Shown: positions 3,447 through 59,790, numbered from the stretch's first letter. The stretch: DNA of 64,000 nucleotides from Nitrosotalea sp. (GCA_020725315.1 DYFG01000001.1:17015-81014); one strand, 5' to 3'. The notes: a model not told the origin generated them from the sequence alone. Program-made: numbers and translations.

Positions 3447-4397
3447 ATGTCAGTAGTTCCGTACAAAAAGAAAGATACTGCACTAGAAGTCCTGCTAGGC
3501 TCTCTAGACTCTATGTCATCTAGGGTGGCCTACAAGGGGGCAGTTACCTCATTTATCCGTTGGTATCAGCAGACAGGGCAGGCAGACGCCTATCGTGGTG
3601 TGCTGGCGTGGAAGGCGTATATGCGAGACGATCTAGGGCTTGCAGCAGCTACTATCAACGCCAAGCTGTCGGCGGTGCGTCGTTACTTTGCTACGGCAGC
3701 GTCCCTTAACCTGATTGATGCACGTATGGCTACTGCTATTCAGGGGATTGGGAACGTTGCCAGCGAAGGAAAACGTCTTGCCACGTGGCTTAGCAAAGAG
3801 AAGGCGACCGAGCTTCTTAACCTGCCTGATGTAGAAACTCCTACAGGTAGTCGAGACTACGCTATCCTGAGTTTGTTGGTAGGCGTGGCCCTTCGTCGTG
3901 GAGAGCTAATTTCTTTGACCTGGGGGCAGTTTGAGAAAGTAGAAGATAGTGGTGGAGTGTTTTGGATCATCCGTGATCTCCGCCGCAAGCGAAATCGTAC
4001 TCAATCAATCCCCGTACCAGGGTGGACGATTGATGCCCTGCTCCATTATGCCAGTTTTTTACCAGAAGATAAGAAAACTTTTAACGGTCGCGTGTTCTTG
4101 TCTTACGTGAATAATGAGTGGGGAAACTCAATCTCTGAGAAAGCAATCTATAACATTGTCTCGCAGTACGGAGAGAAGTTGGGTGTGCCAGAACTTGCCC
4201 CTCACGACCTTCGCCGTACCTGGGCGGCACTAGCTTATAAAGGGAATGCTGATCTACTAGCTATTCAGGAAACGTTGGGACATTCAAATATTGAAACGAC
4301 CCGTCGTTATCTAGCTGAACTTTCTGTATTTGAAAATGACTCAGTGTATAAAACTGGGCTTGACAACCCGAACAGAAGCTTGTACAATGATAGTTGA
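3447..4397 (+). CDS. int: tyrosine recombinase / phage integrase family protein
   Basis: C-terminal catalytic region APHDLRRTW ... LGHSNIETTRRYL (H-x-x-R ... Y). Strong RBS GAAAGGAG upstream of the ATG. Confidence 0.85.
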   Translation: MSVVPYKKKDTALEVLLGSLDSMSSRVAYKGAVTSFIRWYQQTGQADAYRGVLAWKAYMRDDLGLAAATINAKLSAVRRYFATAASLNLIDARMATAIQGIGNVASEGKRLATWLSKEKATELLNLPDVETPTGSRDYAILSLLVGVALRRGELISLTWGQFEKVEDSGGVFWIIRDLRRKRNRTQSIPVPGWTIDALLHYASFLPEDKKTFNGRVFLSYVNNEWGNSISEKAIYNIVSQYGEKLGVPELAPHDLRRTWAALAYKGNADLLAIQETLGHSNIETTRRYLAELSVFENDSVYKTGLDNPNRSLYNDS

Positions 4398-25833: not shown

Positions 25834-25907
25834 TACACAATCTCCCACAATCCCTACTACCAACAATATATACATTATATCAAAAGTATCGCAGGCACTA
25901 AAGACTC

Positions 25908-25936
25908 TTGACAAATCCTAATTTTGCGCTTATAAT
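25908..25936 (+). promoter_or_regulatory. consensus sigma70-type promoter, TTGACA-17 nt-TATAAT, driving the + strand moron operon
   Basis: TTGACA at 25908-25913, 17-nt spacer, TATAAT at 25931-25936. RBS AAGGAACGGG and ATG at 25960 follow. An AGACTC extension precedes the -35. Confidence 0.55.
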
Positions 25937-25959: not shown

Positions 25960-26154
25960 ATGACAGCTAAACAGTTTTTATATGTGTTTATTGTTTTGCT
26001 TTTGATCATAGCGTTTTTAGTGGGCATTACTGATGTTATTTTTGCTATTCTAGGATTCATGTTTGGCGGTGCTTTTATTATTTTAGACAGACAAGAAAAG
26101 ATATGGGTTATGCGAATCAACACAGATGTTCACGAAAGGGGTAACGATGATTGA
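25960..26154 (+). CDS. small hydrophobic membrane protein (2 TM)
   Basis: 64 aa, FLYVFIVLLLIIAFLVGITDVIFAILGFMFGGAFIIL. AT-rich like the phage backbone. Confidence 0.4.
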   Translation: MTAKQFLYVFIVLLLIIAFLVGITDVIFAILGFMFGGAFIILDRQEKIWVMRINTDVHERGNDD

Positions 26155-26515
26155 CCAGTTGGAATGTCCCGTAGCAGCCCCCAAGCTGCTCAAGGCGAAA
26201 TCAACTGTCGTGCTTTGCTCCAACTGCAAAGCGTGGATCACTCGCTATCCGACTTTTCTCGGATATGACGACATGGATCACTGTGAGCGATGCGGTTGCA
26301 CCAGCGTCATTATGCGCGAGGGCCGTCCCTATGGTCCGAAATCGGGCTTGTGGGATTGGATCGTCGCTGAGTTTCGCGAAGTGTTCTCCCACCTCGACAC
26401 GTGGGAGTTCGAGTCCGTTATCTGTGATCCGCCAATCGAGTCGCTCGACTGGAAGGCCATTGACGACTGGTTCAATGAAAACGACTTCCACCGTGCGCCT
26501 AGAACAGTGGAATAG
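26126..26515 (+). CDS. hypothetical Cys/His-containing protein (GC-rich island; start possibly ATG at 26147)
   Basis: 129-aa ORF with CPV ... CSNC ... HCERCGC. GC is clearly above backbone. Confidence 0.4.
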   Translation: MFTKGVTMIDQLECPVAAPKLLKAKSTVVLCSNCKAWITRYPTFLGYDDMDHCERCGCTSVIMREGRPYGPKSGLWDWIVAEFREVFSHLDTWEFESVICDPPIESLDWKAIDDWFNENDFHRAPRTVE

Positions 26516-26518
26516 GTT

Positions 26519-26770
26519 ATGCGAATAGGGGAACACGAAATGAACGCAGCAGAAATTGAACAAAAGCTTGAGCAGTTAGAGCGCAAGCTTGCCCAAGCAG
26601 AGTCGGAACAAGAGAAACTAATCTCCATCATCATGCAAGAAACGGATGTATGCCTGTTTGGTGGCGGCGCTATGCGGGACGGACTCCCCCGCCGCAACAG
26701 TTGCCGCTTTGGGCATCCAGGCTGTGCGTGCGCTGATTGGATTGACGCGCACCGACCAGATAACGTATGA
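26519..26770 (+). CDS. hypothetical coiled-coil protein (GC-rich island)
   Basis: 83 aa, AEIEQKLEQLERKLAQAESEQEKL. Confidence 0.3.
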   Translation: MRIGEHEMNAAEIEQKLEQLERKLAQAESEQEKLISIIMQETDVCLFGGGAMRDGLPRRNSCRFGHPGCACADWIDAHRPDNV

Positions 26771-26807
26771 GAAGGCAGCTACCGGAAATCTATAGGAGAT
26801 GTGGTTA

Positions 26808-27068
26808 ATGCCCACCCTTTACTACCATCCCCGCCGAGGGGGAAAGGCGACGAAAGTGGCAGCAAACAGACTGGCAGTATTGGACACCATTCGAGAGCGC
26901 ACAGAAGCAGAGACACCGCCGGAATGGATCAAGCCGCTGCTGATCATTGAGGCGCTGGTGACTGAGATTGACGCGCTCAAATCTGAGATCGAACTGCTGC
27001 GTGCCGAACTGGGCAACCGTCCCGCCGAGGGCGCCAAGCCTGCGGACGTGTGGCCTGACCGCTGGTAG
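26808..27068 (+). CDS. hypothetical protein (GC-rich island; start taken at the ATG 9 nt after RBS TAGGAGA)
   Basis: 86 aa with C-terminal coiled coil EIDALKSEIELLRAEL. Confidence 0.35.
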   Translation: MPTLYYHPRRGGKATKVAANRLAVLDTIRERTEAETPPEWIKPLLIIEALVTEIDALKSEIELLRAELGNRPAEGAKPADVWPDRW

Positions 27069-27119
27069 CCGCATCTGTGCACAGTTCACACACAGCGCCC
27101 CGGTGTGTGCCGGGGCGCG
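27069..27119 (+). repeat. copy 1 of a repeated roughly 50-nt element: CCGCATCTGTGCACAGTT plus GC-rich hairpin
   Basis: Palindromic core CTGTGCACAG, then a 9-bp stem GCGCCCCGG/CCGGGGCGC at 27095-27118. It abuts the stop codon of the preceding ORF. Confidence 0.45.
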
Positions 27120-27146
27120 TCACTTATCAGAATAGGAGTACTAAAC

Positions 27147-27644
27147 ATGAAAGGACTGGAGATGAAAAAGTACCAGCTTCGGCGGGCAATTCGGCAGACC
27201 TGCATTCTTTCGCCACCGCCGCCCCACAGCGAAACGGAGAAATACGACGCTTGGACGCTAGGGCGGCTGATCGACTACACAGCGAAGGAACTTGAGAAGC
27301 AGTTGCCCGCCTACGTCCGCAAGATGGAGTCGGTTGCTCATCCCGATCCGTCTCGCCCGCTGGTTGTCATGCCGCGAACTACATCCGCCATCCCGCTCAC
27401 CGCCGACGGATCGCCTGCCTTTCCCGAACCAGAACGGATACGCCGATACGACACGGTGCTGCCGAAACGGTTTGTTGTACGCTCCGGGGATGGCCCGGCG
27501 CTCAATGTCTTCATCGGCTATTCATCGCTCATGGAGACGGTCTACTTCTTTCGCGTCAAACGGTTACTCGACGAGGCGACGATCCGCCGCCCAACATGGA
27601 AGGGGCGCAAAACACCCCTCAACCGCGAACTGCCCTACGCCTGA
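27147..27644 (+). CDS. hypothetical protein (GC-rich island)
   Basis: About 165 aa from the ATG at 27147 (RBS AGGAG). No motifs. Confidence 0.4.
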   Translation: MKGLEMKKYQLRRAIRQTCILSPPPPHSETEKYDAWTLGRLIDYTAKELEKQLPAYVRKMESVAHPDPSRPLVVMPRTTSAIPLTADGSPAFPEPERIRRYDTVLPKRFVVRSGDGPALNVFIGYSSLMETVYFFRVKRLLDEATIRRPTWKGRKTPLNRELPYA

Positions 27645-27697
27645 CCGCATCTGTAAACAGTTGCCAGATAGAGCGCCCCAACCGGGGCGCTTTTTGC
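27645..27697 (+). terminator. copy 2 of the repeated element (CCGCATCTGTAAACAGTT) plus a rho-independent terminator
   Basis: Stem AGCGCCCC (27672-27679), loop AACC, GGGGCGCT, then TTTTT at 27691-27695. Confidence 0.55.
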
Positions 27698-27752
27698 TTA
27701 TGCGAATCGACCGTTGCAAAACCCACCAGTCTCTTATGAGTGATGTCATCAG

Positions 27753-30155
27753 TTAACTCTCGCTGTAGGATACCCATGCGCTAATGAGAGATTGCAGCGT
27801 CGCAAAATGTGCGTCTGCAATTGCCTGTTTCGTGCGAAGGTCCGCGATTGATGAGACAACCACCGCTCTAATCCCATCAATCGCCTCGCGGATTTGGTCA
27901 GTAGTGACACCCAGGTTGGTGCTAAGGTCCAAGCTGGTCCATTGGGTCGGATTAGTGCCAGTGAGTTCTTTGGGTGACATAAAATAACTGTTCGTTACCG
28001 CAGAGGTCACAGAGCCGGTTAAAGAGCCGATTAGCGTATCGGTTATTGTCTGATTGCTGCCAGTGCCTGCCAGGACCGCGATCCCGGTACTCGACCATAC
28101 AATATTTTTTTGAAAGGTGCCGTTGTCCCCATCAATGACCATGCCACACAGCACGTCGCCCAGGAAGTTTCCTCGCACCTTACCATAGGTAGGATCGTGC
28201 CAAAAATGGATAGCATATCCCTCTCCGCCGATGAAGATATTTTCTTCGATCAGCGGCTCATCTTCCGCCTGGGTTATGTCATGATTAGTGTAATAAAGCG
28301 AGTGGTAATGGACTCCGCTACCGCACTCAATGAAACGGTTGCGATAGATATGGACGCGGGTAAAGTCTGAACCAAGACACTCCCAAAAACCGAAGAAGGT
28401 GTTGTACCGGACTACGCAATCAGGCTTTACATGCACGTGCTGGTTGGGGGTTGCAGGTGCAGCAGCCTTAGCTCCCCCGATCCAACACCCTTCCAGCGTC
28501 GCCCCGCTATTTACAACTACAGTGGGCGCATAGCCATCAGTGCGAGTGATTATGGGCTTTGCTCCTGCTGCTGCCTTGAGCGTGCCGCCCGCTGGAATGT
28601 TAATATGATAGCCGTTTACCGTAGTGGCCGGGTCGAGGGCATAGATTCCGTCGGCAAGCTCTACGATTCCCCCTGCCGCCAATTCCGCATAAGGGAAAAC
28701 TTGATCGCCAGTCACGGACATCGGCTCCATCAAGACGGGGTCGGGCTGGGAGACGCCGCTACCGGGGCCAAGATAAAGCTGTGGGTTAGCGTAGGCCGAA
28801 GACGAGATCGGATAACTTTGCAACCCTTCAGGTGATGTTTCTGCCGGGTATACCGCCGCGATTGCCGTTGCGGTATCCTGGTGCGACACATCCAAGATAG
28901 CACCGCGCGACGTCACCGTTTTTCCTGAGCGCGATAAAAAGCGGTGTTGTGTGCCTTCGCACATCACGTCGATGCCGGTCGGCGTCCCCACGTTCAGCAC
29001 ATCGGTCCATCCAGCAGGCACAATTTCAGAGCCGCCAACAACTTGTCGCACACAATAATCCCAGGCCGTATTTGTCTCGTTGCGCCGTATAATGGCTCTC
29101 CACTTATTATCTTGATCACCAATGCGGTAGTCGATGGATACTTCTTCGCCTGCCGATGGGGCGTCATTGAGTACAAACGTAAAACGATGTATTGCGTCGG
29201 CTGACGCTTCATACTGCGATCCAGACACTGGCTCGGTTTCGTAGACGGTGGCAAGCCCGGCGTCCGAATTGAACGGCGCTCCAAGAGCAAGCACCGCAAT
29301 TGAATCCATCTCGAATTTGTCGTTGGTAGATGTTACTCTGGTATACACATCTCCAAGGTTGTAATCATAGTATCGCGGTTTAATTAAGGTGAGTTTTGAG
29401 GTGGTGCAATTAATGTATAATACCAAAGTGTCGGTATAAATCACCGCAAACCGACGCTGGTCGCTGTAATAGCCAGAGAAAGTCTCTAAAAAGGAGAGAT
29501 AGGATGGTGAGATACGGTCTACCGGCACTCCCAACTTTTCGTTGCTAAATCCAACGCGCATGTTAGACCCGCCAGCGGTATAGTTCGTGCTAAATAATAG
29601 AGCTAACCCAGGGACAAATGGGGTTGGGCTTGCGGTAGTCACTGATATGTTGGTGGTGGCAGTTTTCGCCAGTTTGCCATTGGCAATCGAGAGGTCAGGC
29701 GCTCCCGCATCGGAAAATTCTAAGACGCCGGGACCGGGTTCACTTGTGCGTGGTGTCGTTATCGGAGCCGCATCAGCGGTTGTAAACTCATCACGCAAAA
29801 TATAGAGATCGACGGCAAGGCTAAACTGAGTTGCCGCCTTGTTGGCATTACCAGCGAGATCGGTACACACCGCAGCAGGAATGTCTACGGTGACTATGCC
29901 AACATCAATCGTTGGTGTGATCGTCGCTGTCCAGACGGTGTTATCTGCCGTGACAAAGTTTGACATCACGCAGTTGCCGAGCTTCACATCGCTGTACGCA
30001 AATCCGGTAACTTCATCGTCAAACGTGATAATAATCGTAAACGGCCCTTTGGTGGGCGCAACCGCATCGCTCGTAATCGTTACGGTCGGCCCGCTCACCC
30101 CCTGCGCCCCCCGGAACGCCGGATTGTTCAGCAGCAAACCCATCATTCCCGGCAT
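27753..30155 (-). CDS. large virion-associated protein: N-terminal Ig-like region, C-terminal right-handed parallel beta-helix (pectate-lyase fold); putative depolymerase or fibre
   Basis: 800 aa. C-terminal PbH1-like repeats NIFIGGEGYAIHFWHD..GNFLGDVLCGMVIDGDNGTFQKNIVWSSTGIAV. GC-rich relative to the backbone. Confidence 0.5.
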   Translation of the reverse strand: MPGMMGLLLNNPAFRGAQGVSGPTVTITSDAVAPTKGPFTIIITFDDEVTGFAYSDVKLGNCVMSNFVTADNTVWTATITPTIDVGIVTVDIPAAVCTDLAGNANKAATQFSLAVDLYILRDEFTTADAAPITTPRTSEPGPGVLEFSDAGAPDLSIANGKLAKTATTNISVTTASPTPFVPGLALLFSTNYTAGGSNMRVGFSNEKLGVPVDRISPSYLSFLETFSGYYSDQRRFAVIYTDTLVLYINCTTSKLTLIKPRYYDYNLGDVYTRVTSTNDKFEMDSIAVLALGAPFNSDAGLATVYETEPVSGSQYEASADAIHRFTFVLNDAPSAGEEVSIDYRIGDQDNKWRAIIRRNETNTAWDYCVRQVVGGSEIVPAGWTDVLNVGTPTGIDVMCEGTQHRFLSRSGKTVTSRGAILDVSHQDTATAIAAVYPAETSPEGLQSYPISSSAYANPQLYLGPGSGVSQPDPVLMEPMSVTGDQVFPYAELAAGGIVELADGIYALDPATTVNGYHINIPAGGTLKAAAGAKPIITRTDGYAPTVVVNSGATLEGCWIGGAKAAAPATPNQHVHVKPDCVVRYNTFFGFWECLGSDFTRVHIYRNRFIECGSGVHYHSLYYTNHDITQAEDEPLIEENIFIGGEGYAIHFWHDPTYGKVRGNFLGDVLCGMVIDGDNGTFQKNIVWSSTGIAVLAGTGSNQTITDTLIGSLTGSVTSAVTNSYFMSPKELTGTNPTQWTSLDLSTNLGVTTDQIREAIDGIRAVVVSSIADLRTKQAIADAHFATLQSLISAWVSYSES

Positions 30156-30207
30156 ATCGTCACCTCGCCCTCGCCTTTATTCGTTATGAGAATGGTCATT
30201 CTAAACA

Positions 30208-32799: not shown

Positions 32800-33912
32800 T
32801 TATTCAATCCCTAGATGTTGCCAAAAACCAACCTGCAAAACGGACGGGGTATCAGAAGTTTCTTTTTCCTCTACCTTTCCCTCACGCTTTTGCTTGAGAC
32901 GATCAACAAGCTCCTGATCACTTTCCTCTTCTTTAGTAAAGGCTTGTGGCATATACTGACGCCATGAACGGGCCGTAAACGCCTCTGCAATCTTCTCGTC
33001 TTCAGACTTACTCTGCTGCTTTTCGATAACAGCAATCTTTTCAGTAAGAGAATTAATTGCCTGCCCGTAGCTTTCTAGCACTTCAGCAAGCTCCTCAATA
33101 TTGAGGGCCTTATAAACGCGAGTGTAGACAGCCTGAAAAGGCTCATCAGGAACTTCCTCTTCCGAAGGAGCTTCTTCTACAGAGTCATTAGCAACTTCCT
33201 CTGCCGGAGTCTCTTCGGCAACTTCTTCCGCGTCAGAACTTTCTTCCATTTCCTTGAAAGGAATAATACGATCCAAAATTTCGGAAGCCTGAATTAGATT
33301 CTCTTCCGCCATCTTTTCGTATTCTTCTCCAAAGATTTGACGCAACCAGTTCCGACGCGCCGAACTAAGCTCTTTCCCCATTACAAAATCTCCATAAAAT
33401 GTTGGTTGTGTGAGGACGTTTGCCGCCCACTCATCCGGTAATATTGTGAACTCAAAGCTTCTATATTTCGAAATTATTTTATCATCAATTTCCAAAACAA
33501 TAAAACCATGAGACATACCTAATGAATATTCATTGTTTAGTAGCTTGTTTACAATAGGTTCTTGTTCTGGATATATCTTGCCTAATACCAGCGCAAAGCG
33601 CCCGAAAACTTCTACCTGCAAAACCTCTCCAATAGAAAATCCTTTGAAGACAGTTTTTGTAAATTCATTAAATTCTTCAGTGGATAATGAACCAGACTCA
33701 TGCAACAAAAATGCAGTGTACCAGATTCGATCCGGTATCTTAGGTGCGTGCATGATCGTGATCTGTGGGACAAAGCCTGTTTCTTCAATCCACTGTTTGT
33801 AGTTAATGTGGGATTCCTGAGATAGAATATCCCCTTCTCGATCCACATAACTATTAGAGTAGATTCCTAGAAAATAGCTTTCGCCATTAACCTTAAATAT
33901 AATAGGCCTCAT
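32800..33912 (-). CDS. putative scaffolding protein / prohead protease-scaffold fusion
   Basis: 370 aa. The C-terminal half is acidic and coiled-coil (EESSDAEEVAEETPAEEVANDSVEEAPSEEE). It sits directly upstream of the capsid gene. Confidence 0.35.
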   Translation of the reverse strand: MRPIIFKVNGESYFLGIYSNSYVDREGDILSQESHINYKQWIEETGFVPQITIMHAPKIPDRIWYTAFLLHESGSLSTEEFNEFTKTVFKGFSIGEVLQVEVFGRFALVLGKIYPEQEPIVNKLLNNEYSLGMSHGFIVLEIDDKIISKYRSFEFTILPDEWAANVLTQPTFYGDFVMGKELSSARRNWLRQIFGEEYEKMAEENLIQASEILDRIIPFKEMEESSDAEEVAEETPAEEVANDSVEEAPSEEEVPDEPFQAVYTRVYKALNIEELAEVLESYGQAINSLTEKIAVIEKQQSKSEDEKIAEAFTARSWRQYMPQAFTKEEESDQELVDRLKQKREGKVEEKETSDTPSVLQVGFWQHLGIE

Positions 33913-40476: not shown

Positions 40477-41143
40477 TGTACCTTTCCGTAGCCTCTTTCA
40501 ATGCCCGTTGAACAACTGAAATAAGATACATCACCTGTTCCATCGTGATCATCAATTTCAGTTCTTTCATTACCTTCACTTGTGTAGAGGCTATTGTTTG
40601 TTGTGATCCTGCTAGACTTACAATCTCTTGCCAGATTTCTTTTTCTGCATCGCTATGTTTCAAAGCCTCACTAATAAGGGATTCTGCTTCTAGCAAATTC
40701 CCACGCATAAGTTCATGGTAAGCCTCGCTAACCATCCCCCAAGCTTCCTGCCTGCCAGGATGTTCTGAAAGTCTCTCCAACAACTCCCATTTACGAGCTT
40801 CTAACAAATAAATATCAGAGCTACGATCTAGATAGCTGGGGTTATCAAGAACCACCTCTAGCTTTTCCCGTAAATTAATAGGAACAAGTTCCATCACATC
40901 TCTAGGAACACGTCTTGGAGACTGCCCACCATGATACTTACAAACAAAATTCCCAGGCTCAGCAGGTTTACCACATTGTGCTTCAGGCCAAAAATCTTCT
41001 GCCGGGGAGTCCCAATCCCCCCGCTCTTCTCGCAGCTTGCGTAGACGAGTCTTAGAAACCCCCTGACAACGGATGGTTTTTCCATCCAACATAAACCTTA
41101 CGCCAGAACCCTCATTAAATCGTCGTTCACCAATTGTTGCCAT
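40340..41143 (-). CDS. putative terminase small subunit
   Basis: 267-aa ORF immediately upstream of, and overlapping, the large terminase gene. RBS AAGGAG 7 nt before the ATG. Synteny-based. Confidence 0.4.
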   Translation of the reverse strand: MATIGERRFNEGSGVRFMLDGKTIRCQGVSKTRLRKLREERGDWDSPAEDFWPEAQCGKPAEPGNFVCKYHGGQSPRRVPRDVMELVPINLREKLEVVLDNPSYLDRSSDIYLLEARKWELLERLSEHPGRQEAWGMVSEAYHELMRGNLLEAESLISEALKHSDAEKEIWQEIVSLAGSQQTIASTQVKVMKELKLMITMEQVMYLISVVQRALKEATERYIDDAHVREAVVDYISRRLEDAAGSGTTAVVTQLSARTESGSNSSG

Positions 41144-41185
41144 ATTAATCTCCTTCGTAAACCATATTACTATGATATGTAAGAA

Positions 41186-41222
41186 TCAAAAAACCCCCAT
41201 GAAGAAATTTTCATGGGGTTTC
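41186..41222 (-). terminator. rho-independent terminator (read on the minus strand) between the upstream 356-aa gene and terS
   Basis: Hairpin AAACCCCCATGAA/TTCATGGGGTTT at 41191-41221. On the minus strand it is followed by TTTTTT, the complement of the A-run at 41188-41193. Confidence 0.55.
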
Positions 41223-41460
41223 TACATTTTTCATTTCTGTTGTGCAGTAATAATAGCAACAAATAAAGTGTTTATCGCTTCCTGTAATCTCGGTAGAGGA
41301 ATCTCTGTATGAGTCTTTGTATTTAACCACTCTACTATGTCAGAAAACGAATCTAGTACCTGCTGTTGCTCTGCACGCTCCGCCAAAAGCGGATCAAGAT
41401 ACGACAGCATTACACCCTTCCTAAAATCTTACGTGATACCTATAATGTCATTAGCGCAAT

Positions 41461-41490
41461 AGATTCTAGGTAGAGACATTCCTAGAATCT
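41461..41490. repeat. perfect 10-bp inverted repeat AGATTCTAGG-N10-CCTAGAATCT in the noncoding stretch upstream of terS
   Basis: Seen directly in the sequence. Candidate operator, or a pac/cos-associated site. Confidence 0.4.
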
Positions 41491-41544
41491 ATGTTTTTTC
41501 TTCTCTATTATTACCCCACCAACAGGGCAGGGGGGTAGCAGACT

Positions 41545-43448: not shown

Positions 43449-44780
43449 GGTGACTGCTCCCCACGGCTAAAGCCGGGGGCTTCTAGGACCGGAGTCCAGG
43501 CTCGCCAGCCCGCGAGCCAAAATGTTCAGAGATGCATTGAGATCGCGGTCCAGTTTCAGGCCGCAGTAAGGACAGTCGTGGACACGCACACTCAAGTCTT
43601 TCGGAACCACCGCGCCGCAGCCGGAGCATTCTTGCGTTGTGCCTCTGGGGTTAACGCGCAGCACAGCACGACCGGCACTTTCAGCCTTGTACGTGGTGAA
43701 CTGCACGAACTGGCCCCAGGCCACGTCCGCGATATTCCGGTTGACAACCCGGTTTCCGTTGGACTGCATGTCCGCGATGTCCAACTTCTCAAAGACGATC
43801 AGGCCGAAGCGGTTGACGAGCTTGCGGCTCTCCTGGTGCGCGAAGTCGGCGCGCCGGTTGGTGGCGCGCTGGTAGGCATGGTTGAGCGCGCGCAGCACCT
43901 TGCGGCGCTCCGGCGAGCCTTTAGCGAACTGTTCTTTCTTGCGCTGCAAGCGGGCGATGTCCGCCGCATCGCGTTTCATCCAGCACTGGCGCGGGATACT
44001 GTCGCCGGTACTCAGCATGGCGAACGTCTTCAGGCCGAGATCCACGCCCACCACTTCAGGCGACGGGGGCAGAGGCGCGGCGTCTACTTCGCACGAAAAG
44101 CAGGCGTACCAGTTGCCTACGCTATCGCGCCGGATGATGACTGTTTTGGGTGTGCCTTCCAGGGGGCGATGCAGCTTGATTTTCACGGCTCCGATTTTCG
44201 AGAGCGTGAGCCGGTTACCGTCCAACTTCACCCCATTACCACACTGCGGATAGGTGAAACTGTCGTACCAGCCACGTCCCTTGAAGCGCGGGTAGCCGGG
44301 CTTCTCACCTGCCTTGACGCGGCGAAAGAATGCCTGGAACGCCAGATCGACGCGTGTGCACGCTTCTTGAAGCGACTGCGAAAAGGCGTTATTGAGAAAT
44401 GGCTGCTCGGCTTTCCAGCCGGGGATCAGCTTAATCGTATCGAAGCGCGTCAGCGTTTCGCGGTTAATGTCCCAGGCATCGCGGCGCACTTCAAGCGTCG
44501 TGTTGTAAACCCACCGACAAGCATCCAATGCGCGCAGCAAGGCGGTGCGTTGGGCAGAAGTAGGAAAGAGGCGGTACTTGTAGGTCAATCGCATAGCCCG
44601 ATTATACCATTTATGCTACAGGTTCACAAACATATGGCGCACCTTATATCCCCCTGCCTTCAGGCAGAGGTTTTACGGCGCTTTTCCGATAAAGCTGAGT
44701 TCTCCCCAGGAGCATCATCACAACACGCCCAACAGGAAGCCCCACACACCGGACACTCTTCTACCACATCACAACTCAAC
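43440..44780 (-). mobile_element. IS200/IS605-family insertion carrying only tnpB (IS1341-like), GC-rich
   Basis: GC is about 60% or more against a roughly 45% backbone. Right-end hairpin near 43455-43480 (GGCTAAAGCCGGGGGCTTC). Left-end-side hairpin CCTGCCTTCAGGCAGAGG near 44655. Confidence 0.65.
43467..44594 (-). CDS. tnpB: TnpB (OrfB_IS605) RNA-guided endonuclease-family transposase accessory protein
   Basis: N-terminus MRLTYKYRLFPTSAQRTALLRALDACRWVYN. C-terminal zinc finger CSGCGAVVPKD...CPYCGLKLDRDLNASLNI. Confidence 0.9.
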   Translation of the reverse strand: MRLTYKYRLFPTSAQRTALLRALDACRWVYNTTLEVRRDAWDINRETLTRFDTIKLIPGWKAEQPFLNNAFSQSLQEACTRVDLAFQAFFRRVKAGEKPGYPRFKGRGWYDSFTYPQCGNGVKLDGNRLTLSKIGAVKIKLHRPLEGTPKTVIIRRDSVGNWYACFSCEVDAAPLPPSPEVVGVDLGLKTFAMLSTGDSIPRQCWMKRDAADIARLQRKKEQFAKGSPERRKVLRALNHAYQRATNRRADFAHQESRKLVNRFGLIVFEKLDIADMQSNGNRVVNRNIADVAWGQFVQFTTYKAESAGRAVLRVNPRGTTQECSGCGAVVPKDLSVRVHDCPYCGLKLDRDLNASLNILARGLASLDSGPRSPRL

Positions 44781-45492: not shown

Positions 45493-45783
45493 TCACGGAA
45501 TGAAATGTCTGTCAATACCAAACAACAAACCTAGATTTCCATTATACCACACTACCATAGCATCTGTTTCTTGCAAAAAGAAAGCCAGCCCCTCTAACGA
45601 TTCAATCTCTACAAACCAGCCTTCCCTTTCAGAATCATATTCTTCTACATCAAACCTCAAATCATCCAGCAGTTTGTAGTTATATCGTTTGGTTTGGTAT
45701 ACGTCCTTATAGGCCGGGGGAGCAGTACGCCGCTGGCTAGGATAGGGATAATCAATAGATCCTTCCAGAATAATAAATCTCAT
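45493..45783 (-). CDS. hypothetical protein
   Basis: 96-aa ORF. Confidence 0.3.
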   Translation of the reverse strand: MRFIILEGSIDYPYPSQRRTAPPAYKDVYQTKRYNYKLLDDLRFDVEEYDSEREGWFVEIESLEGLAFFLQETDAMVVWYNGNLGLLFGIDRHFIP

Positions 45784-46127
45784 TCAAGTCTCCTAATCTC
45801 GTCGTCAGGACAAACCATTGAAAAGAAACGTTCTTCCACCACCAAAAACTCACCGTAATTCAGTTTACGCCGATCTCCGTTAATCCAAACTTTTGAATTA
45901 CTTATCGAATAAGGAAACCCAAGAATTGTTCCATCCGTTTGAGTAGTCTGTCCATAAAGATGCAACGACCAACATTCCGACGCTAAGTCATTGTATGTGG
46001 CAGAGTTCATCACCACCACAATACCAGGATTCTCTACCAGCTTTCCCTGGCTTTCTATAAAGCGGGGAACGGCATGTCGGTTGAGATAGGTTTCTATACT
46101 ACTCAAAAAATCACTATAAAGACTCAT
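45780..46127 (-). CDS. hypothetical protein
   Basis: 115-aa ORF. Its start overlaps the upstream stop. Confidence 0.3.
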   Translation of the reverse strand: MSLYSDFLSSIETYLNRHAVPRFIESQGKLVENPGIVVVMNSATYNDLASECWSLHLYGQTTQTDGTILGFPYSISNSKVWINGDRRKLNYGEFLVVEERFFSMVCPDDEIRRLE

Positions 46128-46561
46128 ATTCCCAACACCTTCCCTAAAGACCCGCCCAAAACCTTTTGTAAAAGCGTATCTCTAGCGTCTGTGTATTGTT
46201 CTATTTCTTTCGTCTCTGCCGGAGATCGATCAACAGAAAAATCAAGATCAGAGATTTTAACGACAACTGCATGAGGGTTTTTTGATACCTGCTCAATATA
46301 TTCAAAATAAGATTGGTTAGGCTTTCTTGTTAGTGCAACTACCGCATCCACCACATCATCAGGGAACTCCTTACGCAACCGCTCTTCTGTAATGTCCGTT
46401 CTTTCTAAAATACCATGAAGCACCGCAATCGTAGACAGCTTTTCATTGTTCTTGATTGCTAGATTATTCATCACATCTATAGCATGAAGAATAAAGGGCC
46501 TTCCCCTCTCATCTTCATCACAATGATAAATAGCAGCGAACATAATGGCCCTAGCCAGCAT
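46124..46561 (-). CDS. HD-domain protein resembling RelA/SpoT-type small alarmone hydrolases (true start probably the third Met, MLARAIMF)
   Basis: GRPFILHAIDVMNNLA ... IAVLHGILERTDITEERLRKEFPDDVVDAVVALTR aligns with the RelA/SpoT HD region (H..a...LLHDvvEDT...FG..V..lV..vT). HG replaces HD here. The listed N-terminus overlaps the promoter. Confidence 0.35.
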   Translation of the reverse strand: MLARAIMFAAIYHCDEDERGRPFILHAIDVMNNLAIKNNEKLSTIAVLHGILERTDITEERLRKEFPDDVVDAVVALTRKPNQSYFEYIEQVSKNPHAVVVKISDLDFSVDRSPAETKEIEQYTDARDTLLQKVLGGSLGKVLGI

Positions 46562-46588
46562 CCGTTTTTCTCTCCACATAATATCTCC

Positions 46589-46617
46589 ATTATACTTGTA
46601 TCTGCCCACAAAGTCAA
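46589..46617 (-). promoter_or_regulatory. leftward consensus promoter, TTGACT-17 nt-TATAAT (minus strand), for the early leftward operon
   Basis: Minus-strand reading gives TTGACTttgtgggcagatacaagTATAAT. The plus-strand complement of TATAAT is at 46589-46594. It lies inside the first listed codons of ORF 46124..46621, which argues for a downstream start. Confidence 0.5.
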
Positions 46618-46620
46618 GCA

Positions 46621-46868
46621 ATGTGGGATAACTTTGGCAAATGTGGGATAATGTGGGATTCCCCTAACAAAGACAAATAATGAGTCACTTACAGACTCTT
46701 TTACTTTAGATCATACACAGACTCTAAATACAGACTCTATAATAATAAATACTAGAATCTTTATATTATAAGTATTTATAAAGAGTCTTTTAGAGTCTTT
46801 AAGATTCAAAATTTTAGGGTTTTTCAAAATCCCACTTTCCCACTTCAGTATACCAAACTATCCCACAT
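46621..46868. promoter_or_regulatory. operator and repeat array in the divergent promoter region
   Basis: ATGTGGGATA occurs three times direct at 46621-46660 and once inverted at 46859-46868 (TATCCCACAT). AGACTCT occurs at 46693, 46719 and 46733, and inverted as AGAGTCT at 46783 and 46793. Confidence 0.5.
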
Positions 46869-46880
46869 TTTACAAGACTC

Positions 46881-46909
46881 TTGACAAAAATTTACGTTTG
46901 TGTTATTCT
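46881..46909 (+). promoter_or_regulatory. rightward promoter, TTGACA-17 nt-TATTCT, preceded by AGACTC
   Basis: TTGACA at 46881-46886, 17-nt spacer, TATTCT at 46904-46909. GAGGAG RBS and ATG at 46931 follow. Confidence 0.45.
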
Positions 46910-46930
46910 GTATCTGAGGAGAAAAAAAAA

Positions 46931-47386
46931 ATGAAACGACACTGGATGTATTTTAAGTATGTTCTGAAACATAAGTGGTTTGTGTTTTTGGCAGGCAGGA
47001 AACTGAACGTTCCTTTGTGGTGCTTGTTGTTACATGATTGGGATAAGTTTACTCCTGGTATGTGGATACCTTATGCCAGAACTTTTCGCAAACCCAATGG
47101 AGAAGGACAATACGAACCTTCAGAGGAGTTTTATGCTGCGTGGAATGGGCATGAAAAGCGGAACAAACATCATTGGCAGTATTGGGTTTTGCTAAAAGAT
47201 TCAGGGGAACTAGTGCCTCTTCCTATACCTGATAAGCACAGACGAGAGATGCTTGCTGATTGGATTGGGGCAGGCATGGCACTTGGAAAACCAGACACAA
47301 AACAGTGGTATCTTGATAATCACAGCAAAATGCACATTCACAAAGATACTAGGATGTGGATAGAAAAGCAACTTTCAATTATTTGA
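46931..47386 (+). CDS. hypothetical protein (His/Trp-rich, LLLHDWDKF motif)
   Basis: Start taken at the ATG after GAGGAG-A9. 151 aa. Function unknown. Confidence 0.4.
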   Translation: MKRHWMYFKYVLKHKWFVFLAGRKLNVPLWCLLLHDWDKFTPGMWIPYARTFRKPNGEGQYEPSEEFYAAWNGHEKRNKHHWQYWVLLKDSGELVPLPIPDKHRREMLADWIGAGMALGKPDTKQWYLDNHSKMHIHKDTRMWIEKQLSII

Positions 47387-47459
47387 GTAGATTATTATAA
47401 GGCATTGTACAATGGAGAAATACCACAGCCAACTATGACAAAAAGACTACTATAAACTT

Positions 47460-47840
47460 ATGGCAGAAGCGAATGGTTGGCCTATAGAGGAGGAAAAGAT
47501 GGAAGAAGAACGTCTTACTTCTAAAGAAATTATCGATCTATCTAAATTGGTAGGCAAGGAACTAGGAAGCCGTTTTTCTGGTACTCTAGAGTATGTTTTT
47601 CAGAACGATAAAATCAATATACGGGCAAGTGGTGGACTAGGGCCTTTTAGTCGCGTCCACATTGAATACTTGTATCGGGGAGAGTGGACTCCTGTATTTG
47701 ATTATGAAGGACCGCTTATGCAGGTTACACGCTTTCGTTATGGTAAATGGGTAGATATTCTTGAAGAGTTAGGCGACAAAGCAGAACGCCGCATTGAGGA
47801 ACGCGAGAACGAGTTCTTTGGAGATTTGGATGAAGACTAA
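47460..47840 (+). CDS. hypothetical protein
   Basis: 126-aa ORF. Confidence 0.35.
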   Translation: MAEANGWPIEEEKMEEERLTSKEIIDLSKLVGKELGSRFSGTLEYVFQNDKINIRASGGLGPFSRVHIEYLYRGEWTPVFDYEGPLMQVTRFRYGKWVDILEELGDKAERRIEERENEFFGDLDED

Positions 47841-51017: not shown

Positions 51018-51270
51018 GAATTTAGGAACACCTAAAATAAAAATTAGGCAGACCAAAATAAAAATTAGGCAGACCTAAAATAAAACTTAGGATAATCTTA
51101 TAACTAATTTTGGTCTGATCCAATCAGAAGCTTTCGGCGCGCCGAATTGTCGCAAGTCTGTTTAATGCTCTATTTTCTTATTTTCTGCCATATTCCCTAA
51201 CTTGATTTTTAGGTTTGCCTAATCCTCTTATTGGCTATTCCCTCATTTGATTCTTAGGTTTGCCTAATCT
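51018..51270. repeat. iteron-like array around a palindrome. About three direct copies of AAAATAAAAATTAGGCAGACC at 51033-51097; a 14-bp perfect palindrome TTCGGCGCGCCGAA at 51133-51146; two inverted copies TTTTTAGGTTTGCCTAAT at 51205-51268
   Basis: Seen directly. The arrangement looks like a replication origin, partition site or multi-operator region. Confidence 0.55.
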
Positions 51271-51510
51271 TTAATACCTTATTATATTGCCAGTCTTTGG
51301 ATAGTTCACATGTGAACAGTATACATATACTCTATATCTCTATAAGGTTTAATTGGTTTAGATATAAACGATCTTATCGCGCTTTGGCGTTACAATCTGG
51401 CTATTATCACGAGTCTTTATTTTCGAGAATAGGTTACGCTTTAACGCGGATAAAATCCTATTATCGATCCTGTGTTTTAACATTCGCAATTTTTGGGAAT
51501 GGAGCAAATT

Positions 51511-51599: not shown

Positions 51600-52560
51600 C
51601 TTGAACACCTAGCTAAATCTGTGATAGGATGTAAGCGCAATTGAGCAAGCGCACATTAAAAATAGCGCCGGCGCGAAAGTCTGGGGCGATGCAGGAAGCG
51701 CCAAGAGATGAGCTTACCCTCAGGCGAGTAGCAATGACGCAATACGCATACGCAACCTTCGGGGGGCTTTCGTCTAGCCAACGAAAGCTGAGCCGTACGG
51801 GGGCTGTAGGAAACTAGTAGACTCGTCCAACCTGAGATCGCACGAGTCTAGAGTAAATCCTAATGGTTGGGGGCCGGGCGGCCCCTCGCTACTAACTGGA
51901 TCCCATTAGCCTTACTCTACTAGCCAAGTGAGCAGATAGCCATATCTGTTATGTCACGCTTGGCTAGCCTAGTTTCCGGCGGCGCAAGCGATTAGAGACC
52001 TCTCTAATACGCACGCGCACCTATAGCACGGCAAACCAAGCGCTGAAAACCTGTTAGGTCGATGAAAGCATACTACACTAGCCAATAGCAGAAGTCTAGA
52101 CAAACAGCCTAGAATCGGCGGGATCGAAAGTAGCCTAATCAATGGCTAGCCTAGCCGATAGTGCATACTGGTGAAAGCGATGACAATGCTAGCTAGTGCA
52201 AGTGCCTAAACGCTGACAGTGATTAATCTAAGTGCGATGCTAAGCCTGGCTATAGTTGTTTTGCTTGTTTTCCCCAACACTCCTCGCAGATAAACCGTAC
52301 CGCACGATATTAGATGATCAATTGCTTAACTCCCGGCGGCTAGGTTATAGGCTATCCTATACCCCAGTCTAAGGGACCAAGTTAGGCATGAGAGACTCTA
52401 TTATCTGGTATAGTCGACTCTGTTAGGTTATGCTAGGCCAAAGCTTAGCTGATCCGCTATAGTGGGATAGCACACTAGGATTAGTTAGGCTAGGCTAGTA
52501 TCTCCCATATCTTATAGTGCCGATAAAATAGGTTATCGGCACTTAGGCTATAGGAGACCA
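51600..52560. other. ORF-free, hairpin-dense, CTAG-rich noncoding region (candidate large structured ncRNA or cis-acting DNA element)
   Basis: No ORF of 60 aa or more in any frame across 51513-52547. 19 CTAG tetramers counted in 51601-52500. Many perfect short hairpins, for example GTGCCGATAA-AATAGG-TTATCGGCAC near 52517-52544 and CTAGACTCGT..ACGAGTCTAG near 51817-51850. Confidence 0.3.
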
Positions 52561-53515: not shown

Positions 53516-53591
53516 GACTAGCTAGTAGCCATAATGGGAATTATGGCTACAATGGTAGCCTTATCAATCATAGCCAATAGGAGAATCTACA

Positions 53592-54002
53592 ATGTTCCGT
53601 ATGATCGATGGATTAGATGACGTCCCAACGGGGGAGTATGCTTGGCAATATTTTAAGTATACGCCTGAATCGGCACCGATCCAATCGCAATATTGGATCG
53701 ATCCATGGGGGAATGTCTACCCCGTTGATTGGCACTACGCGTCAGCACCAGAATTGATCATTCGGCACTTCGGCAAAGATAAGCTTGACTCACTTCGTGA
53801 TGAAAATGGATACTGGAAAATCAACCCGGTTGATTTTCTTGAAAATAATCGATGGCTCCACGTATCCTATATTGGCGTTTTTGGTGACTACACTCAACGA
53901 GGGTATGAGGCACTAAAAACATTGCACCAAAGGATGTCTGAAGCGAACGGTAGCGGCCGCGTACGGGATACTCTGAGGCATATTGCGGTGTATGTTACGT
54001 AA
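53592..54002 (+). CDS. hypothetical protein
   Basis: 136 aa. The upstream context ATAGGAGAATCTACAATG is identical to that of the next gene. Confidence 0.35.
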   Translation: MFRMIDGLDDVPTGEYAWQYFKYTPESAPIQSQYWIDPWGNVYPVDWHYASAPELIIRHFGKDKLDSLRDENGYWKINPVDFLENNRWLHVSYIGVFGDYTQRGYEALKTLHQRMSEANGSGRVRDTLRHIAVYVT

Positions 54003-54040: not shown

Positions 54041-54073
54041 GGCTAGTGTCTTTAACCTATAGGAGAATCTACA

Positions 54074-54439
54074 ATGACACGGCATGAAACGGGGGCGTAC
54101 GGGGAACAAATTGTACAGACTCTTACCGCTGGCAGGTTTGGTAAGCTAGGACGTGATTCGGATATTGTCCTGGCTAACGGCACTCAGATCGAAGTTAAGA
54201 CCGCACGTAAAGGTAAAGATGGAAAATATCGGGCGCGATTGTACAAGCCCGGTAGCCAAGATCATCGAAAGTCTGATTTTGTCGTGTTTGTCCTGTTAGA
54301 TGACGGGGTATACTTTTACGTGATCCCTACAGATGACATTAGAGATCGCGTGCAATTGACCATTACGAGCCATCCTAACACCTATAACGGCAAATATGCA
54401 CAATACAGACAGGAGAGTCTGGCATGGTTAGCGCATTGA
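54074..54439 (+). CDS. putative PD-(D/E)xK-fold nuclease-like protein
   Basis: 121 aa. GRDSDIVLANGTQIEVKTARKG fits the D-x(n)-E-x-K signature. Weak. Confidence 0.3.
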   Translation: MTRHETGAYGEQIVQTLTAGRFGKLGRDSDIVLANGTQIEVKTARKGKDGKYRARLYKPGSQDHRKSDFVVFVLLDDGVYFYVIPTDDIRDRVQLTITSHPNTYNGKYAQYRQESLAWLAH

Positions 54440-58192: not shown

Positions 58193-59790
58193 AGCTAAAG
58201 CGGGGAGCTTCCCAGGGCACGCTCGCCGCAACCGGCCACGTTACGCTCTGGCGGCCCCGTCCGGGCCGGGTTGACCGCAAGCATCAGGATATTCCGAGGT
58301 TACACTGCCCATCACCGCGATCCATCCGTTGCAACAGCATCGCCGTTCTGAGCTTCGCGGGACACGTTTGACCCACTGGCCTGCGTTTCGTCCCGCGCGC
58401 CCGGTACAGGCGCTTTCAACCCTAAGCGAAGGATGTTCTTCGCTGCGTTCACGTCGGCGTTTTCTTCATGCCCGCACGAAAGACACCGGAACCGCGCTTG
58501 TGTTTTACGATTTTCGGCGTCCACTACGCCGCACTCGGAGCACGTTTGACTCGTGTACGCTGGCGGCACCTTGACCAACTGGACGCCGCGCTCGGCACAC
58601 TTGTATTCGAGCAGTTGCCAGAAGGTCGCAAAGCCGGCATCGTGCGCGCTCATGGCGAGACGCTTGTTTTCGATCATGAAGTCCAGCGTCAGATCTTCGA
58701 TGGCGATCAGCCCGTAGGTGCTCGTGAGCCAGTCGGTGACGGTGTGCCAGAAATACCACCGCTGTTGTCTGATTCGGTCCTCCAGCTTGCGCAACTGGCG
58801 CTCGGTTTCCTGCATGCGCGTGGACTTGTGCCAGATGAACACGCCGGGTTTGGGCGTGCCGTCCGCATTGTAGTTCTGCGGGTTGTTGGCGCGGCGCTGG
58901 CGGTCCAGCTTGCGCATAAGCACGCGGCGCTTCTGCTGCCCTTCCCGATACCAGCGCGGGTTATCAATGGTCGTGCCGTCGCTGAGCGCCAGCAGGTAGA
59001 CCATGCCCACGTCAATGCCAACGGCGGGCTTCTGTGAAGGTTCCGGCTCGGCGTCGGGTATTTCAAGCTGGAGGGCGGCGTACCACTGGCCGCGCCGGTT
59101 GCGCAGCACGAGCACGTACTTGATGACGCTCAGGGGCGGCAGATCGCGGTGAAAGCGCAGACGGATGTCACCACAGTTGGCGATGCGCAGCTTAGCCCAC
59201 CCGTCCGACGTTTCGATGAGTTTGCACCCACTACCGTACTTGTAACCCAGGCTGCGGAAGTGGTAGCGCCCCTTGAAGCGCGGGAAGCCCGGTGTTTCGC
59301 CCGCCTTGACGCGGCGGAAGAACGCTTTATAGGCTTTGTCCAGGCGGCGCATAAGGTCATCTACCGTGTCATAGGGCAGCAGCCCGAACGTGTCCGGTTC
59401 CTCTTTGCGCAGTGCGCACCAGTGATCACGCAGGTCATACAGGCTGATGCTCTCGCCGCGTTCCTCATACGCTTCCTTGCGCATGGCGAGGGCACCGTTG
59501 TAGATTTTGCGCCCCTGCCACAGCAGGAAGTCGAACGTCCGCGCTTGCGCCCTCGTCGGATACAGCCGGTACTTGTACGTCCGAATCATCGCCGCCCCAG
59601 AACAGAACACCCCGCCGAAGATTGTGTGTTGTCTAGGCACACGCGCGCGGCAGGGTGTTCCGTCCACAATCATAACGCACGTATCATGCCTAGACAACAT
59701 TAGTATACCGCACATTCGTTCGCAAAGCAAAATCAGAAAGGAGGCAAGCGCCATTCCCAACCGGGCTAAAACCCGGTGTCCCCTGGCGCA
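58193..59790 (-). mobile_element. second IS200/IS605-family tnpB-only insertion, GC-rich, abutting the ardC stop
   Basis: Right-end hairpin CTCCCCGC-TAAAGCTAAA-GCGGGGAG spans the ardC stop (58180-58210). Left-end-side 11-bp inverted repeat TTGTCTAGGCA..TGCCTAGACAA at 59626-59697, and hairpin CCGGGCTAAAACCCGG at 59759-59775. GC is over 60%. Confidence 0.6.
58312..59589 (-). CDS. tnpB: TnpB (OrfB_IS605) RNA-guided endonuclease family (start at internal Met, MIRTYKYRLYPT)
   Basis: N-terminus MIRTYKYRLYPTRAQARTF. C-terminal zinc finger CSECGVVDAENR...CLSCGHEENADVNAAKNI. Listed ORF is 58312..59760. Confidence 0.85.
   Translation of the reverse strand: MIRTYKYRLYPTRAQARTFDFLLWQGRKIYNGALAMRKEAYEERGESISLYDLRDHWCALRKEEPDTFGLLPYDTVDDLMRRLDKAYKAFFRRVKAGETPGFPRFKGRYHFRSLGYKYGSGCKLIETSDGWAKLRIANCGDIRLRFHRDLPPLSVIKYVLVLRNRRGQWYAALQLEIPDAEPEPSQKPAVGIDVGMVYLLALSDGTTIDNPRWYREGQQKRRVLMRKLDRQRRANNPQNYNADGTPKPGVFIWHKSTRMQETERQLRKLEDRIRQQRWYFWHTVTDWLTSTYGLIAIEDLTLDFMIENKRLAMSAHDAGFATFWQLLEYKCAERGVQLVKVPPAYTSQTCSECGVVDAENRKTQARFRCLSCGHEENADVNAAKNILRLGLKAPVPGARDETQASGSNVSREAQNGDAVATDGSR

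Follow-up and report, generated by a model that had tools for sequence, protein, structure and literature searches.

MraZ is among the most conserved bacterial transcription factors and, to our knowledge, its known targets lie almost entirely within its own dcw operon. Host repressors can also control phage promoters, as illustrated by the LexA operators of CTXphi, coliphage 186 (tum) and the Bacillus phage GIL01, and arrays of heptads are bound by ribbon-helix-helix dimers in the cases of the omega repressor of pSM19035 and of ParR/parC. Here, we describe a 352-bp gap (46580-46930) that separates the leftward and rightward early operons in a 64-kb stretch of DNA, referred to throughout as the window, which comes from a metagenomic phage contig of 82 kb (JGI 3300029892, Ga0246235_100118). 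The interpretation that we favor, with moderate confidence, is that this gap is a divergent early control region in which the promoters would be read by the host primary sigma factor, a set of MraZ-type boxes would be bound by host MraZ, and a family of heptads would be bound by a second factor.

MraZ operators consist of three or four GTG(G/T) boxes with 6 nt between them, to which an opened MraZ ring binds through neighboring subunits (PMC12957436; bioRxiv 10.1101/2022.02.09.479790), with one subunit contacting each box (PMC12957436; bioRxiv 10.1101/2022.02.09.479790; PMC8475190). In E. coli, B. subtilis and M. genitalium, MraZ is a repressor (PMC12957436; bioRxiv 10.1101/2022.02.09.479790; PMC8475190). 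The array in the window resembles the MraZ boxes of the dcw/mra operon in E. coli, B. subtilis and Mycoplasma in that GTGG(G) cores are arranged head-to-tail with 6-nt spacers in three to four registers at a promoter (PMC12957436, bioRxiv 10.1101/2022.02.09.479790). It differs from them in that it is not at mraZ, lies upstream of a -35 element and reads away from the promoter, whereas the known array starts just after the -10 element; in addition, one register is degenerate, and a second, inverted and irregular array is found ~208 bp away at the divergent promoter.

The locus may also be compared with three other systems. As in the LexA-controlled phages, the operator of a host regulator would sit on a key early promoter and the state of the host would set phage transcription, but here the regulator would be MraZ, and no LexA-type box (GAAC-N4-GTTC) was found within the window. 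The immunity region of lambda, with divergent P_R/P_RM and three operators each, shares back-to-back promoters, iterated sites and an integrase-encoding phage; by contrast, repressor or Cro genes do not flank the present locus, its repeats are direct 10-bp units rather than 17-bp dyads, and its promoters are separated by 264 bp that hold a further repeat family. Short units of 7-10 bp in both orientations across a promoter region recall the omega and ParR arrays. The omega heptads are contiguous, however, whereas the units found here are 10-28 bp apart, and no ribbon-helix-helix protein or partition genes were found.

Nearly all open reading frames (ORFs) from ~5.8 to 46.6 kb of the window are on the minus strand and a short plus-strand operon starts at 46931, which makes 46580-46930 the point at which transcription diverges. 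An earlier reading of this DNA (the original prediction) had placed a leftward TTGACT-17-TATAAT promoter on the minus strand and a rightward TTGACA-17-TATTCT promoter on the plus strand of this region, and both were found in place (P_L and P_R; Table 1). The pair is of the sigma-70 type, with 11 of 12 and 10 of 12 consensus matches, respectively. Promoter-like hexamer pairs are not enriched in the window (36 observed versus 31.7 expected), so the credibility of P_L and P_R rests on position and on conservation in the related locus L220 rather than on the consensus alone. With hexamers at 17-bp spacing (within the usual 16-18 bp), locations upstream of genes and conservation in relatives, they are good candidates for a functional pair. 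A further claim, that AGACTC extends both -35 elements, holds only for the rightward promoter; the leftward one instead reads ...CATTGC-TTGACT.

Upstream of P_L lies an array of four 10-bp registers, the cores of which are in exact 10-bp phase (TGGG at 46624, TTGG at 46634, TGGG at 46644 and TGGG at 46654). This four-register TGGG pattern has a single occurrence in the window and was obtained in 0 of 200 shuffles. The TATCCCACAT repeats of the original prediction were confirmed, given that ATCCCACAT occurs three times on the minus strand (46621, 46641 and 46651) and once on the plus strand (46860). Its total of five copies in 64 kb compares with 0.54 expected and was reached by no shuffle; four of the five are inside the gap. 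The remaining copy (33806-33814), within the coding sequence of a 370-aa minus-strand gene, is probably there by chance. Box 1 of the left array ends 3 bp upstream of the P_L -35 element, with the remainder of the array further upstream and in an orientation opposite to the canonical one. A single inverted box occupies the P_L spacer and, since this spacer box and box 1 are in opposite orientations, the -35 element is bracketed. Relative to P_L, the left-array cores are at about -43, -53 (weak), -63 and -73, and the spacer box is at about -24. A looser set of boxes at about -52 to -84 of P_R, which includes three weaker boxes at 46831, 46839 and 46852, is inverted relative to the left array, and the two together form a 26-nt inverted repeat of 81%.

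Table 1. Features of the divergent control region and its surroundings in the window, with their counterparts in the relative L220.
Feature	Position	Strand	Description	Counterpart in L220
Second promoter with AGACTC fused to -35	25902-25936	plus	AGACTC-TTGACA-17-TATAAT, 12/12 consensus	
Small alarmone ((p)ppApp/(p)ppGpp) hydrolase	46124-46561	minus	HD domain; first gene of P_L operon; start revised to ATG 46561 (or 46579)	
P_L	46589-46617	minus	-35 TTGACT (46617-46612), 17-nt spacer, -10 TATAAT (46594-46589); predicted start ~46582	TTGACT-17-TAGAAT
Spacer box, inverted	46605-46610	minus	TTTGTGGG, inside P_L spacer	identical
Left array, four 10-bp registers	46620-46659	plus	AATGTGGGAT / AACTTTGGCA / AATGTGGGAT / AATGTGGGAT; GTGG-N6 boxes; register 2 degenerate (TTGCCAAAGT)	three perfect boxes identical; degenerate register TT-CCGAAGT, one base shorter
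Conserved block	46678-46698		TAATGAGTCACTTAC; overlaps inverted repeat GAGTC-N7-GACTC (46682-46698)	
Heptad cluster AGANTCT	46693-46808		46693, 46719, 46732 (C center); 46754 (A center, AGAATCT); 46782, 46792 (G center); partial AGATTCA 46802	GATTCT, AGATTCT, AGAATCT, AGAATCC
AT-rich quasi-palindrome, 80 bp	46719-46798		inner heptads plus ATAAATACT/AGTATTTAT; 16-22% G+C at center	much shorter
Right box set, looser	46829-46869	minus	ATGTGGGATA / GTTTGGTATA / ..GTGGG / ..GTGGGAT; irregular, four registers; core spacing 10, 13, 8 bp	four-register set at same place, boxes individually altered: TTGTTGGATA CTTGGGTATA ... ATGTGGGATT
P_R	46875-46909	plus	AGACTCT fused to -35 TTGACA (46881-46886), 17-nt spacer, TG-extended -10 TATTCT (46904-46909)	TTGACA-17-TACTCT, part of spacer also kept; GGGGCT in place of AGACTC
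P_R predicted start	~46916	plus		
DUF5662	46931-47386	plus	first gene of P_R operon	absent
Right-hand partner gene	47460-47840	plus	126 aa, acidic C-terminus; conserved	homologue is first gene after P_R

The repeat family between the promoters had been described as three forward AGACTCT and two inverted AGAGTCT half-sites. All five are present, at the C-center and G-center positions of Table 1, but the two kinds of half-site are two readings of one palindromic heptad, AGANTCT. AGACTCT occurs 19 times in the window, compared with 7.25 expected, and six of these copies are inside the gap. For AGANTCT, the window total is 32 (17 ± 4.4 expected), and seven of these lie from 46693 to 46881. The -35 element of P_R and that of the promoter at 25908 are each in contact with a further heptad. 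Both repeat families are thus above their shuffled or expected counts in the 64-kb window. The inner pentamer GANTC is found ten times in 220 bp (shuffle maximum of 7), and the control region holds 28.5 such sites per kb, the rest of the window 3.4 (18.5 and 3.8, respectively, in L220). Window-wide, it is neither avoided nor enriched (226 versus 224 expected). The heptad family is specific to the lineage of the window phage. Folded as DNA, the AT-rich quasi-palindrome that holds the inner heptads has an energy of -18.4 kcal/mol (z = -4.27), and 0 of 200 shuffles were equally stable.

Heptads were also noted elsewhere in the window. At 41459-41491, between genes for 352-aa and 59-aa proteins, a perfect 11-bp inverted repeat (TAGATTCTAGG-N10-CCTAGAATCTA) carries two AGANTCT heptads and may be a second site for a heptad-binding factor; eight GANTC sites are found in 41000-41500. 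In addition, an identical 18-mer, ATAGGAGAATCTACAATG, which comprises a ribosome-binding site and start codon with a heptad inside, occurs at 53577-53594 and 54059-54076, before the genes at 53592 and 54074.

Homologue searches with three neighboring proteins returned only two further lineages, L220 and L222, to both of which a neighboring 115-aa protein led, and phylogenetic footprinting therefore rests on a thin sample of three sequences. L220 shows 68-80% protein identity and a homologous divergent region of 324 bp. Compared with L220 at the DNA level, the window is 76% and 71% identical in the two neighboring genes, 69% over the whole gap and 85% in the block that comprises P_L and the array. 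All 27 of the 27 nt in the perfect boxes are invariant across the three lineages, as are the TTGAC of P_L and the sequence GTAAGTGACTCATTA of the conserved block, whereas register 2 varies. The spacer box is kept in L220 and also in a remnant in L222, and the heptads of L220 retain their arms with the center base changed. The claim of divergent control is supported: the locus combines two near-consensus promoters with two families of iterated repeats, presumably sites for proteins, and the promoters and both families recur in a diverged relative. In L222 (87% identical; 1-830), a 205-aa gene with its own spacer and -10 element has been inserted immediately after the TTGAC of P_L, such that the array and -35 element would drive the new gene, and a remnant of the old spacer and ribosome-binding site persists before the hydrolase gene. 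L222 is thus an example of gene gain at a promoter.

To place the box in a wider context, an exact search for the two-box 19-mer ATGTGGGATAATGTGGGAT was performed in viral contigs and in one genome for each of 185,579 species. The viral contigs yielded 19 loci, which belong to several unrelated groups and are always at regulatory-looking positions. In 13 of them (L081-L086, L090-L092, L094, L095, L098 and L099; 47-49% G+C), the 19-mer follows a terminator and is found inside a promoter as TTGAC-ATGTGGGATAATGTGGGAT. The order of this shared module is terminator, TTGAC-ATGTGGGATAATGTGGGATACAT and gene start, with two boxes filling the promoter spacer. No described relative was found for L084, the sole contig tested from this group, or for the group-A and L096 loci. 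The 19-mer overlaps a -10 element in L093 and is present in at least four tandem copies in L087 and L097. In L088 and L096, the array is followed 40 bp on by inverted GTGG boxes at 11-bp spacing; these two contigs and the window phage have a distant DNA polymerase in common, and L096 also shares a Mom-like protein. The copies in L100-L102 are identical to one another and uninformative.

The species genomes yielded 37 loci with arrays of three to six registers, ~30 of them in Chloroflexota (Roseiflexus, Chloroflexus, Oscillochloris, Anaerolineae and Caldilineae). At two of these loci, L124 and L128, the 19-mer lies directly between a promoter and mraZ. As an independent test, 80 metagenomic loci encoding relatives of the L124 and L128 MraZ proteins were collected, 76 of which had sufficient upstream sequence. 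A GTGG-N6-GTGG pair was present in 60 of the 76 and at least three phased boxes in 54, mostly starting right after the -10 element. The unit consensus derived from these upstream regions, GTGG-G-G-n-A-A-A, accommodates the phage unit GTGGGATAAT, and the TGGGATAA flavor was observed upstream of mraZ at L140, L149, L153, L155, L157, L158, L182 and L184. The TGGG/TTGG/TGGG/TGGG registers of the phage array conform to the architecture of MraZ repeats, with register 2 degenerate and variable among relatives, and the same box sequence appears at predicted mraZ promoters. Judged by architecture, the TATCCCACAT repeats are MraZ-type boxes and a candidate operator for a MraZ of the host type. They had originally been taken for phage-specific operators, a view that does not survive the finding of the same sequence upstream of mraZ and other genes in Chloroflexota genomes. 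With the box present on Chloroflexota chromosomes and at mraZ promoters among them, the missing repressor is probably a host protein. No MraZ homologue was found to be encoded in the window, and the boxes therefore most likely recruit host MraZ. Reports of MraZ boxes in phages were not found in the literature searched.

Several of the chromosomal loci deserve description in their own right. The Roseiflexus-type loci (L104, L106, L108, L109, L111, L113, L117 and L137) carry five-box arrays. In L106, for which ORFs were checked, the array is in the interval between an sbcD-like exonuclease gene and gatD; an sbcD-like gene was also seen in L125 and L135, and a LexA-type box is nearby. Five-box arrays are likewise found in the Chloroflexus loci (L112, L122, L127, L130, L133 and L139), directly before a conserved GTGTCAA and TATAAT, with a MoxR-type ATPase gene downstream (L122 and L139). 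The arrays of both genera point to a wider MraZ-box regulon in Chloroflexota. In L103, L105, L121 and L131, which range from 43% to 65% G+C, the 19-mer and further phased boxes are embedded in the gene for NAD-dependent DNA ligase, within its coding sequence (peptide ...HYPTLSHII...). Nucleotide identity there exceeds the expectation from coding constraint alone, and these copies may be an embedded regulatory site. Finally, a LexA-type box (GAAC-N4-GTTC) is located just downstream of the MraZ boxes in 34 of the 76 mraZ upstream regions (L140-L219), a hint that the SOS response controls mraZ and the division cluster in the bacteria concerned.

The window phage is an undescribed tailed phage; near and distant searches of the window region against 50,697 phage records returned no DNA relatives. 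Its host is probably a member of the Chloroflexota. The following scheme builds on what was observed, namely sequence anatomy, statistics, conservation and the identity of the box with mraZ-upstream sequences; all binding, the transcription starts and the direction of control in it are predictions. Host RNA polymerase would use P_L and P_R, two strong outward-facing promoters, without phage factors, P_L driving the small alarmone hydrolase and the small genes behind it and P_R driving DUF5662 together with the conserved 126-aa gene. Host MraZ, an oligomer that autoregulates the division/cell-wall cluster, would bind the boxes and repress P_L by occluding the bracketed -35 element. P_R may be affected less, perhaps with help from bridging of the two inverted arrays, and early phage transcription would thereby depend on the level of host MraZ. 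A second factor, most likely phage-encoded, would bind the AGANTCT heptads around the AT-rich quasi-palindrome. The LexA-type box that follows the MraZ boxes in many mraZ promoters means that MraZ could act as an SOS-linked signal. We propose tentatively, and with less confidence than the scheme itself, that phages of Chloroflexota, and perhaps others, carry operators for host MraZ on early promoters, such that early expression or exit from lysogeny is read from the division or SOS state of the cell.

If this broader proposal is correct, it would be the first MraZ regulon outside a bacterial chromosome. A phage control region made of MraZ boxes would in itself extend the role of MraZ to the interaction between virus and host. 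The phage boxes would offer a natural system that varies in box number, spacing and orientation. Among the 185,579 species genomes, the 19-mer is nearly confined to Chloroflexota and so provides a sequence clue to the host phylum of uncultured phages; the flavor of the box could then mark that phylum. More generally, where a phage rich in orphan genes seems to lack a repressor, the host may be the one that supplies it.

A number of observations weigh against this scheme. The assignment of the host is indirect. At the characterized mraZ promoters and the 76 collected here, the boxes begin right after the -10 element and read with transcription, whereas the main phage arrays are upstream of the -35 element and read away from the promoter; because canonical operators have neither this upstream placement nor this orientation, whether MraZ would repress or activate is uncertain, and repression is a guess. 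The Chloroflexus arrays are just upstream of the poor -35 element of the moxR-type gene, which is an activator-like arrangement, and M. gallisepticum MraZ has been reported as an activator (PMC12957436; bioRxiv 10.1101/2022.02.09.479790; PMC8475190). Only two perfect left boxes are adjacent, the register between boxes 1 and 3 being degenerate, variable and 1 bp shorter in L220, and spacing in the right-hand set is uneven. L220 does not conserve the heptad that abuts the P_R -35 element. Most of the Chloroflexota copies of the 19-mer are away from mraZ, in the sbcD/gatD interval, upstream of moxR or inside ligA, and another protein of similar specificity is therefore possible. Likewise, since most early proteins are orphans, a phage-encoded AbrB-like protein could be present among them in unrecognized form.

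A rival view takes up the candidate switch of the original prediction as a classical one, in which a phage repressor/antirepressor pair, unrecognizable by sequence, would bind TATCCCACAT and AGANTCT and decide between lysis and lysogeny or between early and middle transcription. Divergent promoters with iterated repeats, a heptad family specific to the phage lineage and orphan small neighbors in which a regulator could be hidden are all in keeping with such a switch, and the tyrosine integrase encoded at 3447-4397 (Pfam 3.4e-22) makes a temperate lifestyle possible, although it is 42 kb from the control region. We nevertheless regard it as unlikely. The divergent genes encode an alarmone hydrolase and DUF5662 (in L220, the homologue of the 126-aa protein), none of which is a regulator by the tests run; as the flanking genes are not repressors, a switch of the CI/Cro type is not supported. 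Pfam or PHROGs scans of ~50 window proteins revealed no helix-turn-helix, ribbon-helix-helix, AbrB, MraZ or other transcription regulator, in agreement with the earlier remark that no helix-turn-helix repressor was recognized nearby. The products of 47460-47840 and 45780-46127 had been put forward as binders of the repeats. AlphaFold models of the former were too poor to interpret (predicted local distance difference test, pLDDT, of 46) and of the latter moderate (pLDDT of 63, best Foldseek match no better than E = 0.26), and these models gave no fold match and hence no evidence of DNA binding. Furthermore, the box is common to Chloroflexota chromosomes, including mraZ promoters, and to unrelated viral contigs that share no flanking protein with the window phage, a distribution that a phage-encoded pair leaves unexplained.

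Other explanations concern replication and modification of the DNA. The AT-rich quasi-palindrome could be the unwinding element of a replication origin, with the repeats as sites for an initiator or host factor and with activation by transcription from the promoters, a reading that is compatible with the promoters being real. Low G+C content, significant cruciform potential, inverted repeat clusters on both sides and a location at the cumulative GC skew minimum and the switch in transcription direction would suit an origin. In phages, however, GC skew follows the direction of transcription, which makes the skew argument weak; the repeats are 10-bp and 7-bp units and not iterons of 17-22 bp, no initiator gene is adjacent, the palindrome is much reduced in L220, and a more typical iteron structure is found at 51019-51273. 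On balance, an origin at this position is distinctly improbable. Control by methylation, in which the heptads act as GANTC sites for a DNA methyltransferase and their methylation state sets promoter or origin activity, draws on a GANTC density that, in the window and L220 alike, is 5-8 times higher in the control region than outside it, on a minimal conserved core that amounts to GANTC with a free center, and on the DNA methyltransferase (2707-3396) and Mom-like modification enzyme encoded by the phage. It is very unlikely, given the unremarkable window-wide count of GANTC, a methyltransferase that has neither a match to the N6_N4 (CcrM/HinfI) family nor a solved relative, and conserved A...T flanks that suggest a 7-bp protein site. 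Least probable is that the TATCCCACAT boxes are TTATCCACA-like DnaA boxes through which host DnaA would be recruited to replicate or regulate the phage. A single additional C distinguishes TTATCCCACA from TTATCCACA, and TTTTCCACA, TTCTCCACA and TTATCCACA itself occur 40 bp from the array in L088 and L096. The inserted C, however, breaks the register of the 9-mer, such that TTATCCCACA gives no 9-mer match to TTATCCACA with at most one mismatch, and this reading was rejected. The boxes are also head-to-tail at exactly 10 bp, the apparent DnaA boxes of L088 and L096 amount to an inverted MraZ-type array, with GTGG cores spaced by 11 bp on the opposite strand, and DnaA signature motifs were found in the fetched flanks of 0 of the 37 genome loci, two of which are directly upstream of mraZ.

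The region around 51 kb is of interest in itself. Between 50700 and 52580, 1.9 kb is devoid of called genes and contains three direct repeats of 21/22 bp (AAAATAAAAATTAGGCAGACC-like, 51019-51091), two inverted copies (51196-51273) and additional paired repeats at 51512/51556. Short TAGCC/GGCTAG repeats crowd its GC-rich portion (51600-52550), and no Rfam match was obtained. It is a candidate origin, partition site or non-coding RNA region. An Rfam scan of 46-53 kb gave one sub-threshold chance match only.

Regarding the genes on either side of the control region, the start of the leftward ORF, previously annotated as 46124-46621, did need to be moved downstream, as had been proposed, and gene callers use 46561 or 46579. 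The version that starts at 46561 matches the solved (p)ppApp hydrolase 7smg with E = 3.9e-13 from residue 2 onward. A GGAGAG precedes its ATG by 10 nt, and the ATG itself is located downstream of the predicted P_L start. No relatives of this HD protein were found in viral contigs. On the right, 80 DUF5662 loci were compared and proved to be non-syntenic and to be without the motifs. In the relative P0004, the counterpart of the 126-aa protein is 153 aa long. A TGA interrupts the corresponding N-terminal extension in the window (47400-47460; ...CAACTATGA...), and near-identical phages therefore differ in where this gene starts.

Elsewhere, AGACTCTTGACAAA was confirmed to recur at 25902-25915, as originally noted, ahead of the 12/12 consensus promoter of Table 1. 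This promoter, surrounded by genes of the minus strand, precedes an ORF for a small hydrophobic membrane protein that starts at 25960, and the arrangement resembles a moron. No tRNAs were found, and the small proteins of the window are mostly orphans. Its other products include a DNA polymerase, ArdC-like and Mom-like proteins, a DNA methyltransferase, a RusA-like resolvase, the tyrosine integrase and two TnpB elements. The TnpB (IS200/IS605-type OrfB) genes, at 43467-44594 and 58312-59760, are in segments of 50-57% G+C, compared with ~44% for the phage, and probably entered it by insertion from a host with a higher G+C content. A further segment of 52-54% G+C within the leftward block (26000-30200), which includes an 800-aa minus-strand ORF (27753-30155), may be another inserted element.

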